DNA from: an uncultured Thermoplasmatales archaeon
GTDB lineage: Archaea > Thermoplasmatota > E2 > DHVEG-1
Direction: 5' to 3'
Assembly (NCBI GenBank): GCA_964517155.1
Contig: CAZFAZ010000010.1
Location: 1 to 32,034 of the forward strand
Length of the DNA: 32,034 bases
Shown: piece after piece, positions 1 through 9,000 of the stretch
How positions within the stretch are numbered: position 1 is the first letter of the stretch
Layout: every line of letters begins with the position of its first letter
Made by a program: the position numbers

Positions 1-3000
1 GTAAACCTCTTGAAGAATGTCTTTCTGAGTTTAAAAAAGGACTTAAACAGGGTTATACTCATTTTGTTTTGACTGCAGATGACACAGGAGCTTATGGGAT
101 AGATATTGGAAATACTTTTCCAGACCTTCTAGATGAGCTGCTAAAATATCAAGGGAATTATGTTATTGAACCGCAAGGTTTGAATCCTGTATGGATAGTA
201 AAATATATCGACCAATTAGAAAAGCAACTAAAACTCGGGAAAATAAAAACAATTCTTTCGCCCATTCAATCGGGTAGTAGCAGAATCCTCCAACTTATGC
301 AAAGATATCACAACACTGAACAAATGAAAGAAATCTTTTTAAGATTAAAAAAAGCTTATCCAGATTTAAATCTACATATGCATTATATAATGGGTTTTCC
401 AACAGAAACAATGAAAGATGTTGATTTGACTCTCAATTTTATAAAAGATGCAGGTTTTGATGGAGGATATATATTTTCTTACTCATGTAAATCAGGCAGT
501 AAAGCAGAGAAAATTGAGCCAAAAATTTCTCAAGAAGAAATTAAAAAAAGGATGTATTATGTTAAAAAGTTTTTAAAAAAAGCAGGATACCGTGTGATTT
601 ATCTTTCTGAAATGCATTTTTTTATATTTGAAAAAAGAAAATAGCTATTTGCTAATCATGAAAATAATATTTGATAGGTGACATTATTTTGCTCGCAATC
701 TTTTTTAGATATAATCATTCCGCTTTAAAAACCAATAATAAGCTTTATTTAAATCGTTTTATTAATAAAATAATGAAAACATTGTTCATTCAGATTACTA
801 TGTCCTATCAGGGGAATAAAAACTTAAAGCTAGACTACATATAAAATCGTTTATATATGTAAACCCAGGATGTCGTTGTGAATTAAGATCTTTGGATGCA
901 GAAAGAATTGGAGAGTTTTTTGATTATTTACTCTGAAAAAGACGAAATAATGTCAAACAAAACAAAGTTTATTTCAAACGCGTTTTATCATGATGCAAAA
1001 ATTGTTGTAATTCAAGGCGTTGCTCATATGTTTCCTGTCTCTAATAATAAAAATTTTGTTGATTTAATGATAGATTATCTTAAAAGATAATTATTTAACC
1101 ATTAGTTTTTTTTATGTTTGTATCAAATCAGGATAATAACTAATAACTATTTGTTATATGTGCCAGGTATGAATCATATGAAAAGTGTTTACATTTGTTT
1201 AAATCACGATTGTGAGCTAAGATATCTTGATGCTACAAAAATTAGTAAATATTTTAAAAAAAACAATTTTAAAATTGTTAAAAAACCATATGATGCGGAT
1301 ATTATTTTTTTTATAGCATGTGCTGTAGTAAACGAAGTATCTGACGATGCATTAAATCGTATTCAATCATTCAAAAAATATGATGCGGAGCTTATTGTTG
1401 CAGGGTGTCTTCCAGAAATGGAAAAAGAAAAATTATCAAAAATTTTTGACGGTAGAACATTGGTTACAAAAGAGTTTGATGGAATAGATGAATTATTCCC
1501 AGAAAACAAAATAAGTTTTAATGAAATTAAGGAGGGTAATAATCTTTTTGATTTTGATCATCAAAATACAATTTTTACAAAATTAAAAGAATCTTTTTCA
1601 GAAAATTTTTTTATTTTTAAAATACTTGAAAGAGCCACTGTTTACGTAGTAAAGCACATTTTAGTTGAAAAATCTTTTTTATATCATGTTTTAATAGATT
1701 CTAAAAAAAAATATTTTATATGCATATCTCGAGGTTGTATGGGAAATTGTTCATATTGTACCATTCCTAAAGCAGTTGGTAGACATAAAAGCAAACCTTT
1801 TGATCAATGTTTAAATGAGTTTAAAAAAGGACTTGAACAAGGTTATAAACAATTTGTGATAACTGCAGATGATGTAAGCATTTATGGTTTAGATATTGAT
1901 AGTACATTGCCTAAATTATTAAGATCGATTGTAGCAATCCCAGATGATTTCGAAATTTCTATTAGAGGCATCCATCCTAGGTTTTTAATTAAGTATATAG
2001 ATGATTTGATGGATATATTTGATAAAGGGAAGATAACTAGGTTGGGTATACCCATCCAATCAGGCAGTAGTAGGGTACTGAAATTAATGAACAGATACTC
2101 AGATACTAATAAGATGAGCGAAGCACTTATAAAATTCAAAAATAATGCGCCTTTTGTTACAGTTCACACTCATTATTTAATGGGTTTTCCAACTGAAACT
2201 TTTGAAGACGTTACAGAAACATTAGAATATATGGTTGGTATTAAATTTGATGCAGGGTTTATTTATCCATTTTCTTGTAAAACCGGTAGTGTGGCAGAGA
2301 AAATTGAGCCAAAAATTTCTCAAGAAGAAATTAAAAAAAGGATGTATTATGCTAAAAAGTTTTTAAAAAAAGCAGGATATAAAGTTATATATCTACCAAA
2401 AACCAGGTTTTTTTCATTCGAACTTAAAGATCAATAGTATTTATAACCATTATATTCAAAAAAAGCTCTAGTTTTTTTGTAGATAAATCTTCGCATATTT
2501 GATACTGCAGGATCTAAAGTTAGATTTCTTGTTTTTATCAAATCTTTATACTCAATTTTTTTTACAGAATCTAATTCTAAAAATTTCAATATATTACCAA
2601 TCGTATCATTGGGATTTTTACAAAATTCTTCGTATTTTATATTTATATATTCAGATTTTTTTATATTTTTTATGTTTTCAAGGAAAGTATTCATAAATTT
2701 TTTCATATGTCTTGTAATTGCCATAACTCCTAATGGTGATAATTCATTATACAAAAATCTAAGAAATAAAACTAATAAATAGTAATTATAAATCTCATCA
2801 TAAAAGCTATCTATTTTTGAATGATAAAACGGTTTTTCTTTATATAAAAAACGTTCCGACCCAAGACCAGAATTGATGCTGTTAAACGGATGTCTGTGAA
2901 TAAAAATAAATTTTGCATCTGGTATTTTCTTTTTTATGAATACAAATCTAAAGATATCTTGTGGATTTTTTAATAATATGGGTCTATTGTTTTTTGATAT

Positions 3001-6000: not shown

Positions 6001-9000
6001 AAATGGATGGTATAAAGTTTGTGAGGATGTTTATTCTATTAAAAATATAACAAAACGTGTTTTTACAAACAATAGTTTAAAGTTTAGTGCTTGGCTGTGG
6101 AAAACATCATTAAATTATGTTGAAAAAATTAGATAATAGTTATATGTCTTATCGAACATTTATAAAATTATAAAGTTTAAGAGATCTGAAAAATGAAAAT
6201 TTTACTTATCCTTGCTCATACTGGTACAACTTATCATGTGGTCGATGAATTAATTTATAGATATTATTATCCTTCGCTAACATTAGGGCAGTTAGTTTCA
6301 ATAACTCCAGATCATCATAAAATTGAAGTTATCGATGGTAGATATCAGAAGGTAGATTATAATTGGGTAGGAGATATTGTAGGGATCTCGTGCAGAACTG
6401 TTGCTGCTAAAACTGCTTATAAAATTGCTGATAAATTTAGAGAGAAAGGCATCAAAGTTGTTCTTGGTGGTTGGCATCCCTCACTAATGCCTGAGGAGGC
6501 TAAGCAGCATGCTGATAGTGTTGTTATTGGTGAGGCTGAGGATACTTGGCCTCAGTTGCTTAGGGACTTTGAGAATGGTGAACTAAAATCTTTTTATCGC
6601 CAAACAAAGCCCGTTGATCCGCGAAGTATACCCTCCCCTGAAATAATTAAACAAAAACATATTTTTTGTATGCCTATCCAGGCAACTAGAGGTTGTCCAT
6701 ATGGTTGTAGTTTTTGTCCAGTTAGTACTTTTCAAGGAAAGAAAATTAGACTTAGGCCTATCGATGATATTTTGAAGGAAATTAAAGATGCTCCTACTAA
6801 AAGATTATATTTTGTTGATAATTCTCTTACAATCAATGTCAGTTATACAAAAGAGTTATTCCGTGAGATGATTGGATTAAATAAAAAATTTAGTTGCTAT
6901 GGAAATATAAATGTTCTTGGTGAAGATATAGAACTTTTAAAACTTTCAGCTGATGCCGGATGCGATTGTTGGATAGTCGGATTTGAATCAATATATCAAG
7001 AGACAATTAATAAAATTGGAAAAATAACTAATGTAGTTGAGAAATACCCCAAAGCAATCAAAAAAATGCATGATCACAATCTTATTATACAAGGCCTTTT
7101 TGTTTTTGGTTTAGATGATGATAAACCCTCTGTTTTTAGAGAGACACTAAAGGCCATTTATAAATGGAAACTAGATAAAGCCGGTTTTGCGATTAGGACA
7201 CCTTTTCCAGGAACAACAGAGTTTGATAAGCTAGATTCTCAGGGAATGATAATCTCTAAAGATTGGTCTAAGTATAATTTAAAAAATGTTGTTTTTCAAC
7301 CAAAAAATATGAATCCTGTAGAATTATTCAAGGGTACGAATTGGGCTATAAATAATTTTTATTCAAATACAAATCTAATTAAAAGAAACATTCAGGATAA
7401 AGAAATAAATTTAAATCGTATAATTAATAGAACGATATCAGAAGCTTTGTCAAAAAATTTGTATAAAATATTAGGTTTTTAATTTTTTTTTAAAAATGGA
7501 TACAAAATAAACACTTGGTCAAGTGAGGGACAAATTATTATTGTTTTTACTTGTGCTGCTTTTAATTCAAAAACAAAAACGTCTCTTAAAAAGATAAAAG
7601 AATTCCATAAATTTGATGCTTAGCTTATTTTTGCAGGCTATATATCTAAAACAGAAAAAGAAAAAAATAATATAGATATTTAATAAGAGAAACAAACAAA
7701 TGGCAAAAAAATTATGAGACAAAAAAATGAAAATATTATAACTGTGTTGGTGACGGTCATGTTTTAGGTATTTCAGAAATATTGAAAAACAATAATATAA
7801 AATTTGAATCAGTTAAGTATTATCTTTTACTTTAAATAAAACAACAACATTTTAATACCCTACTTTGTTAAAGGGAAAAATTCTGGTGATTAACAAATGG
7901 TTGAAAAAATAAAAAATACAAGCGAAATATCTGTAAAGGCAATGCCTGTTGCAATTGCAGAACCAGCAGCACTCGGTCTTTTAGGTCTTGCTGTAGCTGC
8001 TCTTGTTATTGGTGCAGCATATTTTGGTTTAACACATGGTGAAGGATTTGGATCAAAATCACTTATGATTCCATGGATTTTAATGTTTGGAGCAACCTCG
8101 CAGCTTATAGCATGTTTAATGGATTTTAAAAGAAACAACATTTTTGGAGCAACAGTATTTGGAACATATGCAATGACGATGTATTCTATTGCAATTACTC
8201 TTCTAATAGCAATATTTGGTGGAGAAGGTGAAAATGTTGAATTTGCACATTATGCATTTGGTCTTATTGCAATACTTTTCTTTAGCCTTATTGCAACAGT
8301 TGCATCACTTATGACAAACAAGGTTTTATTTGCAATATTAATTGCGGTTGATATTGCAGTTATTGCATTGATACCTCATTACTTATCAGGGATTTCTGCT
8401 TTTCCAGCAGGAGTTTTTCTAATGATTACTTCTGTGTTATCGTTTTATGCTGCAGCTGCAATTTTAATTAATACAATGGCTAAAAAAACAGTTTTTCCCT
8501 TAGGCAGTCCTATATGGAAACCTTAATTTTTCTTTTCTATCATTTTTTTAAGGCATAGGCTACAGCGGCTTTTGCATGAATACTTGTAGTATCAAAAACA
8601 GGTATATCCAAGTCGCTTTGCTTAATTAATAATGGTATTTCAGTGCAGCCAAGAATAACTCCTTGTGCACCTTTTGATACTAGCTTTTTGATTATCTCTA
8701 TGTATTTTTGTTTTGATGAATCTTTAAAGATTTCAAATCCCAGTTCATTTTCTAATATATCTTCTATTATTTTTTGATCCTTTTCATCAGGTATAACTGT
8801 TTCAATGTCATATCTGTCTTTTAGTTTCTTCTTAAAAAAATCTTCATTCATTGTATATTTCGTTCCAATGAGACCTACTTTTTTTAGGTTTTTTTCTTTT
8901 ATTTTTTTGGCCGTTGCATCTACAATGTGAATCAGTGGGATTCCAATGTTTTTCTGAAGTTCATTTGCTATTTTATGAGGAGTATTTGCACATATTATAA

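Follow-up and report, generated by a model that had tools for sequence, protein, structure and literature searches.

The MiaB, MtaB and RimO proteins (PDB 7MJX and 4JC0) combine an N-terminal UPF0004 domain carrying three conserved cysteines with a radical-SAM CxxxCxxC motif and a TRAM domain. tRNA and protein S12 are the only substrates stated for the MiaB/RimO family in the relevant part of a 2023 paper (PMC10702137). B12-binding radical-SAM enzymes are found in lipid pathways, with GrsA/B and Gmm described as lipid enzymes in the corresponding sections of PMC11214058, and the B12-binding radical-SAM desaturase Ted described in sections of a preprint as overlapping the AttH-like hydratase Hgs (bioRxiv 10.1101/2025.10.20.683597). 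The same domain order occurs in the class B natural-product enzymes AprD4, TsrM, CysS and TokK. Finally, Bacteroidota make an aminoacylated ‘linking sugar’ through the Wbp/Vim pathway, for which the relevant sections of PMC7468200 describe a VimE deacetylase, a VimA transferase placed in the TIGR03019 family, and a VimF glycosyltransferase.

Here we describe the left end of a 32,034-nt stretch of contig C10 from an uncultured Thermoplasmatales archaeon of sediment (the whole stretch being the window). Pfam and NCBIfam profile searches recovered all six genes of window 1-7482 at the positions given in Table 1, in agreement with the first-pass annotation, which had listed half of one MiaB-like gene and a full copy of another, a sulfotransferase and three tandem B12-binding radical-SAM genes. 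The sulfotransferase gene is convergent with that of MiaB-like enzyme 2 and divergent from that of B12-binding enzyme a.

Table 1. Features at the left end of the window and at its junction with contig C28.
Feature	Position	Strand	Evidence
Exact overlap with the 3′ end of contig C28; assembly-graph junction	1..98	.	sequence identity, synteny
MiaB/RimO-like enzyme 1, TRAM-less, C-terminal 213 aa	3..644	+	Radical_SAM (Pfam), TIGR00089
MiaB/RimO-like enzyme 1, N-terminal 254 aa	C28:21269-22030		
MiaB/RimO-like enzyme 2, TRAM-less	1118..2437	+	UPF0004 + Radical_SAM only (Pfam)
Sulfotransferase, Sulfotransfer_3/1	2431..3408	-	PF13469, E 6.8e-22
B12-binding radical-SAM enzyme a, 438 aa	3506..4822	+	B12-binding 43.7 bits + Radical_SAM (Pfam)
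B12-binding radical-SAM enzyme b, 428 aa, with DUF4070	4850..6136	+	Pfam
B12-binding radical-SAM enzyme c, 429 aa, right end of island	6193..7482	+	Pfam
GPR1/FUN34/YaaH acetate-transporter-like gene, first gene right of island	7897..8526	+	Pfam, NCBIfam

The locus continues on another contig. The last 98 nt of C28 are identical to the first 98 nt of C10 and occur on no other contig; the assembly graph was built with k=99, and overlaps of 99 nt occur at 17 other pairs of contig ends. The open reading frames cut at the two ends are in frame and have 32 identical residues in common, giving a single MiaB-like protein of 254+213-32 = 435 aa, and the join is backed independently by synteny with genomes G059 and G091. 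Both the join and the reading of the two partial genes as halves of one were thus correctly called at first pass, as were the genes of C28: Tes (PDB 7TOL, E 3.7e-121), a glycosyltransferase, a small radical-SAM protein, a GNAT protein, an epimerase/dehydratase, a DegT aminotransferase, FemAB-like proteins, a carbamoyltransferase, a methyltransferase and the N-terminal half of MiaB-like enzyme 1.

An accessory island of 19.0 kb, made up of C28:10407-22030 and window 99-7482, interrupts the stretch from tes to the acetate-transporter/racemase genes, and window 1-7482 represents its right-hand half. In G091, of the same genus, the gene order is HypD-Tes-ZIP-racemase-PALP-cupin-ExoIII-M32, which matches window 8540-17599; a single ZIP transporter gene follows Tes, and homologues of window 8540-10154 come next. 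Since Tes there runs on into the genes right of the block, the block is a low-GC insertion: its GC content is 28.4% against 31.8% for the genome, a value matched or undercut by just 0.4% of 247 same-size windows. Homologues of the acetate-transporter-like gene lie near Tes in G022, G023 and G028, directly adjacent in the first two.

The island behaves as one unit. In G059 a single run on contig C24 holds two B12-binding enzymes (56% identity each), two MiaB-like genes flanking a carbamoyltransferase (65%), both FemAB-like genes, a VimE-like gene (59%), DegT (70%), epimerase (71%), GNAT (61%), rSAM324 (72%) and GT1 (58%). On G058:C77, two B12-binding enzymes accompany FemAB (44%), DegT (68%), epimerase (67%), GNAT (56%), rSAM324 (73%) and GT1 (56%). 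This synteny and the insertion boundary seen in G091 bear out the grouping of the C28 and C10 genes, sugar genes included, into one set.

The two MiaB-like enzymes share 54.8% identity. The C-terminal half of enzyme 1 scores 130 bits against TIGR00089 (profile positions 169-362) and ends in a short tail where TRAM would be. Enzyme 2 likely starts near position 1178, where its homologues begin, and scores 210.3 bits against a TIGR00089 cut-off of 251. Its Cys32/68/97 and Cys207/211/214 are conserved without exception across 14 sequences. The predicted model of enzyme 2 (pLDDT 84) most resembles RimO (4jc0) and MiaB (7mjx), sharing their overall fold (TM about 0.66-0.71), but the island enzymes carry a roughly 50-aa helical insert between the two domains, and a helix and two-strand hairpin form the C-terminus in place of TRAM. 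TRAM is likewise absent from the best 120 of 1757 database relatives. The family occurs in 40 of 118 genomes of the order, with up to nine matches per genome, and its star-like tree does not firmly pair the copies of this genome (G000) with those of G059 as orthologues. Because they lack TRAM, are multi-copy and patchily distributed, and coexist with a separate TRAM-bearing MtaB, these genes are unlikely to encode tRNA enzymes, which agrees with the first-pass view; they are grouped with tailoring enzymes and not with translation genes. Both Fe-S cluster motifs are kept, so methylthio insertion into a non-RNA substrate is the most likely activity.

Further MiaB-like/B12-type loci are present on C85 and C67. 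A third recurrence claimed earlier, on C33, is not the same kind of pairing, since the UPF0004 gene there is MtaB and the genes for PGK and GAPDH separate it from the B12 gene. The paralogue counts also differ slightly from those first reported, MtaB again being the sole TRAM bearer: the genome encodes five TRAM-less MiaB-like genes besides MtaB, six full B12-family genes, one split B12-family gene (C33-L and the C57/C58 bubble) and one N-terminal fragment at the end of C67, while a 631-aa B12-binding radical-SAM protein on C36 is unrelated.

In both sequence and fold the MiaB-like enzyme best matches RimO, whose substrate is a protein; this would suit a RiPP-type pathway whose B12-binding enzymes C-methylate peptide or protein side chains and whose RimO-like enzymes methylthiolate them. 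On C67 a YcaO gene adjoins the MiaB-like gene and the B12 fragment and weakly matches the NCBIfam YcaO RimO-accessory-factor model (65.6 bits, cut-off 700); YcaO/B12 modules recur in G025, G085 and G037; farther along the window, at 23.9-27.5 kb, comes a set of PqqD, rSAM-SPASM and C39-like genes (Pfam); and C36 encodes a bona fide TIGR03975 RiPP C-methyltransferase (358 bits, cut-off 281.85). However, neither a plausible precursor nor a PqqD/RRE protein was found in or beside window 1-7482, where the sole sizeable intergenic reading frame (896-1090, 64 aa) looks like the remnant of a larger gene, and the conserved partners of enzymes a and c are sugar enzymes. We have little confidence in a peptide product.

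The B12-binding enzymes reach no curated NCBIfam equivalog; for BchE they score 109-112 bits against a cut-off of 481, in keeping with the earlier view that they are not chlorophyll enzymes. Enzyme a groups with a gene of the G059 sugar cluster and a G085 gene adjoining MiaB-like genes, whereas enzyme c groups with one G096 gene and with genes from the sugar clusters in G059 and G058, both clades having an SH-aLRT of 99; enzyme b is unplaced in the tree, with no orthologue among the sampled genomes. Kinship with the class B enzymes is distant, at a level short of any curated family, but the sequence similarity is significant if weak (AprD4, E 1.3e-14; TsrM, 1.4e-7; CysS, 4.9e-6).

The three enzymes also share the B12-binding plus radical-SAM architecture of GrsA/GrsB, Gmm (PMC11214058), Cgm and Ted. 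The island's neighbour Tes had led to the proposal that the radical-SAM enzymes tailor the tetraether isoprenoid core downstream of Tes, by C-methylation, desaturation or ring formation, and methylthiolation, the sugar genes making the head group. Elsewhere in the order, B12-family loci are accompanied by PaaK-like ligases (13/20), a nicotianamine-synthase-like methyltransferase (9/20), UbiA (7/20) and AttH/CrtC-like proteins (6/20), compared with 2, 0, 0 and 0 in 40 control loci centred on Tes. Some B12-family members there are immediate neighbours of AttH/CrtC-like proteins and UbiA prenyltransferases, an arrangement like that of Ted and Hgs. MiaB-like genes are found with UbiA, AttH/CrtC-like and PaaK-like genes at 2 of 18 loci, and directly abut AttH/CrtC-like genes in G101 and G092; the AttH-like gene of G000 adjoins archaeal mevalonate-pathway genes. 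This order-wide context, echoing Ted/Hgs, makes a lipid-linked product and an isoprenoid substrate plausible, but does not single out the tetraether core.

The functional link to Tes itself is not supported. Among 40 sampled Tes neighbourhoods, two contain a B12-family gene, close to the roughly 1.4 expected by chance from 391 matches spread over 118 genomes, each of about 1.9 Mb, and none contains a MiaB-like, GT1 or FemAB gene. B12-family genes do occur near Tes in G093 (adjacent) and G085 (one gene away). The orthologous clusters of G059 and G058 lie on contigs other than that of Tes, and the island beside Tes is an insertion whose placement relatives do not share. The neighbours of the three window copies are sugar genes and not AttH-like or Grs genes, and at 428-438 aa these copies are shorter than the lengths used in the homologue searches described in the preprint (more than 495 aa for Cgm, at least 500 aa for Ted). 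A methylthiolated lipid was not found in the archaeal-lipid literature consulted, ‘methylthio’ occurring 0 times in the preprint. Tailoring of the tetraether core is rather unlikely; of the earlier interpretation, the non-tRNA role of the MiaB-like enzymes and the union with the sugar genes are supported, and the functional tie to Tes is not.

The sugar genes offer a closer parallel. As in the Wbp/Vim pathway (PMC7468200, relevant sections), a CE4/VimE-like deacetylase (unk363; VimE, E 4e-30) adjoins a VimA-like transferase of the TIGR03019 family (FemAB_1, E 1.7e-33), and a sugar aminotransferase, an N-acetyltransferase and a glycosyltransferase are present; a PorU-like C25-family protein is also encoded in the G059 cluster. 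DegT scores about 252 bits for LegC/PseC, and the carbamoyltransferase matches NodU (E 1.8e-38). As all these matches fall below curated cut-offs, no step can be assigned more finely than to a family. Unlike Wbp/Vim, the host is an archaeon; the aminotransferase, dehydratase and GNAT are more Pse/Leg-like than WbpB/E/D-like; the G000 island has no C25 gene and no WbpB-like 3-dehydrogenase, the latter being present in G059; and nothing in the Vim pathway corresponds to the radical-SAM, carbamoyl and sulfate decorators. Sulfation is feasible, as C1 carries a PAPS-supply operon (CysD, CysN, APS kinase, a DHH phosphatase-like protein and a sulfate symporter), and in G020, G084, G083 and G037 a homologue of the sulfotransferase gene neighbours B12 genes.

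No polytopic flippase, polymerase or oligosaccharyltransferase is encoded in the island, an absence as compatible with a soluble metabolite as with a glycolipid. In the former case the cluster would make a released, unanchored compound of the aminoglycoside or nucleoside-sugar type, a small amino sugar tailored by radical-SAM, carbamoyl, methyl and sulfate steps. Consistent with this are the closest relative of known structure for enzyme b, the aminoglycoside enzyme AprD4 (6fd2), the presence of a NodU-family carbamoyltransferase and amino-sugar enzymes, and the low-GC, patchy and fast-diverging character of the island. By contrast, domain annotation finds no exporter, resistance or regulator gene in the island, its methyltransferase has two hydrophobic segments at the N-terminus, the nearest pathway analogue, Wbp/Vim, yields a surface-glycan sugar, and the G059 cluster includes the PorU-like C25 protein. 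We regard a soluble product as improbable.

Taken together, we give an about even chance to the reading that the island makes an N-aminoacylated amino sugar, decorated by radical and other enzymes, for a cell-envelope glycoconjugate. Its conserved core would run as follows: an NDP-sugar dehydratase/epimerase, the PseC/LegC-like aminotransferase and GNAT would produce an acetamido sugar, from which the VimE-like de-N-acetylase would free an amine, and one or two VimA/FemAB-like transferases would place an amino acid on it. To end these core steps, a GT4 glycosyltransferase with its small MoaA/viperin-like radical-SAM partner would hand the sugar on. The remaining genes would serve as decorators: the NodU-like carbamoyltransferase, the methyltransferase and the PAPS-dependent sulfotransferase would decorate it. 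The three cobalamin-type enzymes may carry out C-methylation or related C-H chemistry, and the two TRAM-less MiaB/RimO-like enzymes most likely methylthiolate a non-RNA substrate at a C-H bond. Since their families elsewhere lie beside UbiA/AttH-like or YcaO/C25 genes without sugar genes, the sugar may not be that substrate; the radical enzymes would act on either the aminoacyl-sugar or an isoprenoid carrier, and the product is probably a cell-envelope glycoconjugate, that is, a glycolipid head group or glycan.

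Two MiaB-like enzymes, a sulfotransferase and three tandem B12-binding radical-SAM enzymes (B12a, B12b and B12c) are encoded at the left end of the window, and all six genes were found in the open reading frame list and by Pfam and NCBIfam where the first-pass annotation had placed them. The first MiaB-like gene (enzyme 1) starts on another contig, C28, whose last 98 nt are the first 98 nt of the window's contig, C10, and occur in no other contig; its two halves are in frame and give ~435 aa combined. In this assembly, which looks like a k=99 graph, 17 other contig-end pairs overlap by 99 nt. 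In another genome of the order, G059 (contig C24), genes of C28 and of C10 lie in one uninterrupted run. In the same-genus genome G091, one stretch carries HypD, the tetraether synthase gene Tes, a ZIP transporter and homologues of window 8540-10154, 10597-10938 and 15327-17599. The two junction flanks belong together, because G091 carries both contiguously. The join is confirmed by these two independent lines, the G059 and the G091 synteny. The genes that had been listed for C28, namely Tes, a glycosyltransferase, amino-sugar enzymes, a FemAB-like protein, a carbamoyltransferase, a methyltransferase and the MiaB-like half, are also present. The 19.0-kb block to the right of Tes (C28:10407-22030 plus window 99-7482) is referred to below as the island.

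Features of the island on contig C28 (locus L001) and at the left end of the window
Feature	Position	Strand	Family match
GT4-type glycosyltransferase (GT1)	C28, after Tes		
324-aa radical-SAM protein (rSAM324)	C28, after Tes		MoaA/viperin-like
GNAT protein	C28		
Short-chain dehydratase/epimerase	C28		
Aminotransferase (DegT)	C28		PseC/LegC-like, ~252 bits
FemAB-family protein	L001:13178-14248		TIGR03019, E 1.7e-33, 116 bits, cut-off 260
VimE-like deacetylase	L001:14292-15383		NF053580, E 4e-30, 104.8 bits, cut-off 440
Second FemAB-like protein	C28		weak, E 2.2e-8
NodU-like carbamoyltransferase	C28		
Class I methyltransferase	C28		two N-terminal hydrophobic segments
MiaB-like enzyme 1, N-terminal half	C28		
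MiaB-like enzyme 1, C-terminal half	3-644	+	Radical_SAM; best family MiaB/RimO, TIGR00089 130 bits, profile positions 169-362
MiaB-like enzyme 2	1118-2437	+	UPF0004 and Radical_SAM, without TRAM (Pfam, NCBIfam)
Sulfotransferase	2431-3408	-	Sulfotransfer_3 (Pfam)
B12a	3506-4822	+	B12-binding and Radical_SAM (Pfam)
B12b	4850-6136	+	B12-binding and Radical_SAM (Pfam)
B12c	6193-7482	+	B12-binding and Radical_SAM (Pfam)

The first-pass annotation had tied the radical-SAM genes functionally to Tes. The identity of Tes itself holds, since the C28 gene product resembles the solved GDGT/MAS synthase over its full length (E 3.7e-121 to PDB 7TOL over residues 5-493), and Tes occurs in 106 of the 118 genomes of the order. 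The neighbourhood is not conserved. When ~10 kb on each side of Tes was sampled in 40 further genomes, a B12-family gene was found in two of the 40 loci (G085, with one gene between, and G037, at 15.5 kb), against a rough chance expectation of ~1.4 B12-bearing windows (40 windows of 20 kb; 391 matches in 118 genomes). Homologues of the MiaB-like, GT1, FemAB, DegT and carbamoyltransferase genes were found in none of the 40. In addition, two B12 enzymes lie between Tes and HypD in G093, one a member of the family and the other a distant enzyme of 470 aa, and in G059 a MiaB-like gene stands alone 12 kb from Tes, with unrelated genes between. The Tes neighbourhood of G091 contains no B12-family or MiaB-like gene, and the contig of G090 stops after Tes. 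In G022, G023 and G028 Tes has a homologue of window 7897-8526 nearby, which adjoins it directly in G022 and G023. The synteny of G091 and of G022, G023 and G028, together with the sampled Tes loci, shows that the island has been inserted between Tes and the genes that usually adjoin it. The island (19,008 bp) is low in GC, at 28.4% compared with 31.8% genome-wide; of 247 windows of the same size, only 0.4% are as low. The best-supported reading is that its position next to Tes is incidental, an accident of insertion and not a conserved lipid operon, which corrects the attractive but unsupported inference from adjacency.

A second Tes gene of this genome (C35:3445-4962, L040), 79% identical to the C28 copy, has neither a HypD neighbour nor radical-SAM tailoring genes nearby. 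A second indel was seen in the window: the block at 10942-15207 (two MinD/ParA-ferredoxin fusions, two NifX/NifB-type Nitro_FeMo-Co proteins, an Mrp/NUBPL ATPase, DUF5320 and DUF134) has no counterpart in the syntenic region of G091, in which the cupin gene is directly followed by the ExoIII-like gene.

The MiaB-like enzyme retains both Fe-S cluster motifs of the methylthiotransferases. Its UPF0004 domain (PF00919, 47 bits, cut-off 27) contains Cys32, Cys68 and Cys97, and its radical-SAM core (PF04055, 75.2 bits) contains the CxxxCxxC motif Cys207/Cys211/Cys214; all six residues are invariant in an alignment of 14 family members. In methylthiotransferases the three UPF0004 cysteines ligate an auxiliary 4Fe-4S cluster. 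An AlphaFold model (pLDDT 84) has a helix and a two-strand hairpin at its C-terminus, and its best Foldseek matches are RimO (4JC0, E 1.6e-25) and MiaB (7MJX, E 2.6e-24), with TM 0.66-0.71, so that the predicted overall fold is that of the MiaB/RimO/MtaB methylthiotransferases. Enzyme 2 scores 210.3 bits with TIGR00089, under the subfamily cut-off of 251, and far under the cut-off of every equivalog model (NCBIfam). The TRAM domain (PF01938) has no Pfam match in the genome's five MiaB-like paralogues and is present in its separate MtaB. Alignment with this MtaB shows a short tail in the paralogues where MtaB has TRAM, and alignments show an insert of ~50 residues between the UPF0004 and radical-SAM domains. 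The earlier view that these are not tRNA enzymes agrees with the domain evidence and, for the two enzymes of the island, is part of the best-supported reading.

Members of this TRAM-less family occur in 40 of the 118 genomes, at a membership threshold of best E <= 1e-57, while the genome's own MtaB reaches only 4.5e-32 with the same query. At E <= 1e-10 a database search gave 1757 proteins. The top 120 of them have UPF0004 and Radical_SAM only, no TRAM and 44-52% identity; the automatic name 'MiaB' is attached to several, and the named sources are Thermoplasmatales archaea. A protein atlas contains clusters with UPF0004 and Radical_SAM only, the commonest phyla being Omnitrophota and Bathyarchaeota. 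A profile search of genome contigs with a five-sequence alignment gave no more than 9 loci, of which 5 belong to Thermoplasmata and 4 are distant bacterial MiaB-type matches; it is a weak guide to the spread of the family beyond the order. The family tree is star-like and leaves the orthology between this genome and G059 unresolved. In the passages on substrates of a 2023 publication (PMC10702137), methylthiotransferases are credited with two known substrate types only, tRNA and protein S12, and a literature search of incomplete coverage found no paper on a characterised TRAM-less member.

The three B12 enzymes share the class B domain order, an N-terminal B12-binding domain (PF02310; 43.7, 48.8 and 44.5 bits, cut-off 32.1) followed by a radical-SAM core (PF04055 in all three), and are predicted to use cobalamin. 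The best solved relative of B12b is AprD4; as AprD4 illustrates, the fold alone does not settle the chemistry of a cobalamin-type radical-SAM enzyme. The BchE model of NCBIfam gives the B12 enzymes 109-112 bits against a cut-off of 481, and no gene of window 1-7482 attains a curated NCBIfam cut-off. In a quick IQ-TREE analysis of 47 members of the B12 family, B12a falls into a clade with the cluster gene of G059 and one gene of G085, and B12c into a clade with the cluster genes of G059 and G058 and one gene of G096 (SH-aLRT 99 each); B12b is unplaced. The family is present in 113 of the 118 genomes (391 matches, 1 to 10 per genome).

What is conserved around these enzymes, in two other genomes, is a set of sugar genes. 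In G059:C24 the radical-SAM side has two B12 genes (56% each) and two MiaB-like genes, the latter separated by the carbamoyltransferase (65%) and a UDP-GlcNAc 3-dehydrogenase-like gene (E 1.7e-37); the sugar side has both FemAB-like genes, the VimE-like gene (59%), DegT (70%), epimerase (71%) and GNAT (61%), and the last genes encode a PorU-like 735-aa protein, rSAM324 (72%) and GT1 (58%). The cluster of G058:C77 comprises a C25 peptidase at its edge, two B12 genes, FemAB (44%), DegT (68%), epimerase (67%), GNAT (56%), rSAM324 (73%) and GT1 (56%).

The VimE-like gene of the island matches the model of the VimE UDP-2,3-diacetamido-2,3-dideoxy-glucuronate deacetylase (NF053580) and adjoins the TIGR03019-type FemAB gene, both at the level of family and not of equivalog. 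As described in parts of PMC7468200, VimE takes the N-acetyl group off an amino sugar, VimA, which matches TIGR03019, then puts serine or glycine on the freed amine, and vimA and vimE homologues adjoin each other together with Wbp genes in several bacteria. At the level of family, the archaeal pair repeats this logic. In the island, the dehydratase, aminotransferase and GNAT look more Pse/Leg-like than Wbp-like, and neither the 3-dehydrogenase nor the 6-dehydrogenase of the full WbpA/B/E/D pathway, which leads to a 2,3-diacetamido uronic acid, was found there. The PorU-like protein of G059 (L041:1-2208) resembles both PorU, the sortase of type IX secretion (E 6.3e-19), and beta-propeller repeats; in Bacteroidota, PorU joins proteins to the Vim-made linking sugar, according to the same source, and an archaeal analogue of such anchoring is conceivable.

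Signs of a peptide pathway were also sought. No convincing precursor peptide gene, PqqD or RRE was found in window 600-1150 or 7440-7930, and the PqqD nearest to the genes of window 1-7482 lies at 24865-25191. A 64-aa open reading frame at 896-1090, between the MiaB-like genes, resembles the C-terminus of a bigger enzyme, perhaps an alpha/beta hydrolase, and is probably a gene remnant and not a precursor peptide. Elsewhere, C25 peptidases adjoin YcaO/B12 pairs in B12-family loci (Pfam), and YcaO/C25/B12 triplets recur in G025, G085 and G037; this adjacency may be partly chance, because C25 has nine Pfam matches on seven contigs in this genome, none of them in the island. At the end of contig C67 (28397-32022, L004) lie a YcaO gene, a TRAM-less MiaB-like gene and an N-terminal B12 fragment, the YcaO protein matching weakly the NCBIfam model of the YcaO accessory factor for the S12 methylthiotransferase RimO. 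The same contig encodes a 1256-aa GyrA (23148-26918; L004:5126-8896) with an intein that has a LAGLIDADG endonuclease domain.

At least four sulfotransferase genes are present in the genome, which also has a PAPS-supply operon (C1:6237-12941, L114) with a sulfate symporter, sulfotransferase, APS kinase, DHH-family protein and CysN-like and CysD-like proteins, so that sulfation is feasible. ATP sulfurylase of the Sat type was not found, and the CysDN type is present. None of the island's genes encodes a polytopic membrane protein.

That the radical-SAM enzymes act on a lipid is the main alternative, and the wider B12 family bears on it. In 20 B12-centred loci from genomes without TRAM-less MiaB-like matches, compared with the 40 Tes-centred loci as controls, the neighbours included PaaK-like ligases (13/20 vs 2/40), nicotianamine-synthase-like methyltransferases (9/20 vs 0/40), UbiA prenyltransferases (7/20 vs 0/40), AttH/CrtC-like proteins (6/20 vs 0/40) and sulfotransferases (3/20 vs 0/40); the 18 MiaB-centred loci contained B12 genes (6), ligases (6), FemAB-like genes (3) and AttH/CrtC-like genes (2), the last immediately adjoining the MiaB-like gene in both cases (G101 and G092). 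These counts are descriptive only, as the genomes are related and not independent. CrtC lipocalin-domain matches in four neighbouring proteins are weak and repeated (E 1.8e-6 to 6e-3), and a geranylgeranyl-reductase-like gene and a CruF-type 'Caroten_synth' gene were also seen (Pfam). The AttH-like gene of this genome adjoins AcnX, UbiD-like and GHMP-kinase genes, which we take to be the archaeal mevalonate route. Within 7.5 kb of the three window B12 genes there are no UbiA or AttH/CrtC-like genes.

Among characterised lipid enzymes, GrsA/B and Gmm are B12-binding radical-SAM proteins and Gms is a SPASM enzyme (passages of PMC11214058; GrsA/B, Gmm and Gms are also covered in the review PMC13459092). 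TIGR04190 (the Ta0216 family) was tried as a proxy for Grs and discarded, as it scored under its own cut-off in the control genome of Sulfolobus acidocaldarius. For Cgm/Ted homologues, bioRxiv 10.1101/2025.10.20.683597 gives thresholds of E <= 1e-99 or 1e-100; compared by length and gene context, the window B12 enzymes (428-438 aa) are shorter than the published >495 or >=500 aa, and the pairing of B12-family and AttH-like genes elsewhere in the order parallels Ted/Hgs. Because the B12 family as a whole is associated with UbiA and AttH-like genes, the lipid alternative stays in play; we consider it unlikely, though by no means negligible.

Two further regions contain genes of related type. A second low-GC stretch of the window (21703-31980; 26.6% over 21000-29700) encodes an isoprenylcysteine/phospholipid-methyltransferase-like membrane protein, two UbiA prenyltransferases flanking a pair of a radical-SAM protein (NirJ/AhbD-like by NCBIfam) and PqqD, a C39-like peptidase, an LCM methyltransferase, a second sulfotransferase and then two DDE transposases. 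This could be a lipid or a peptide system, since the GMGT synthase Gms, a SPASM radical-SAM enzyme, is analysed together with AhbD in the relevant part of PMC11214058. Contigs C57 and C58, 89% identical over their full length and both overlapping the left ends of C30 and C33 by 99 nt, form a strain-level bubble that carries the conserved module of the order (an unknown 433-aa protein, UbiA, a methyltransferase, a ligase and two B12 genes), with a B12 radical-SAM gene split over the junction with C33.

Taken together, the best-supported reading is that the island is an accessory, inserted set of genes for a decorated aminoacyl-amino-sugar glycoconjugate, in which the radical enzymes would act on the sugar-borne amino acid or on the isoprenoid carrier. 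More specifically, and as a tentative proposal that we hold to be possible but on balance doubtful, TRAM-less MiaB/RimO-like and cobalamin radical-SAM enzymes may put methylthio and C-methyl groups on an archaeal membrane glycoconjugate, either on the amino acid of the Vim-type sugar or on the isoprenoid anchor. The hosts, to judge from the names of related records, are presumably relatives of Thermoprofundales/Marine Benthic Group D, which are abundant in sediments and of whose envelope chemistry we know of no account. The family-level matches would place a Vim-like aminoacyl-sugar route in archaea. If the proposal is true, the products would be sulfur-bearing, sulfated and carbamoylated glycolipids of sediment archaea, which have not yet been looked for, and the TRAM-less enzymes would be the first methylthiotransferases to act on something other than RNA or ribosomal protein. 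Because the TRAM-less branch, with at least 1757 relatives at E <= 1e-10, occurs in tailoring clusters, a third class of methylthiotransferase substrate becomes directly testable.
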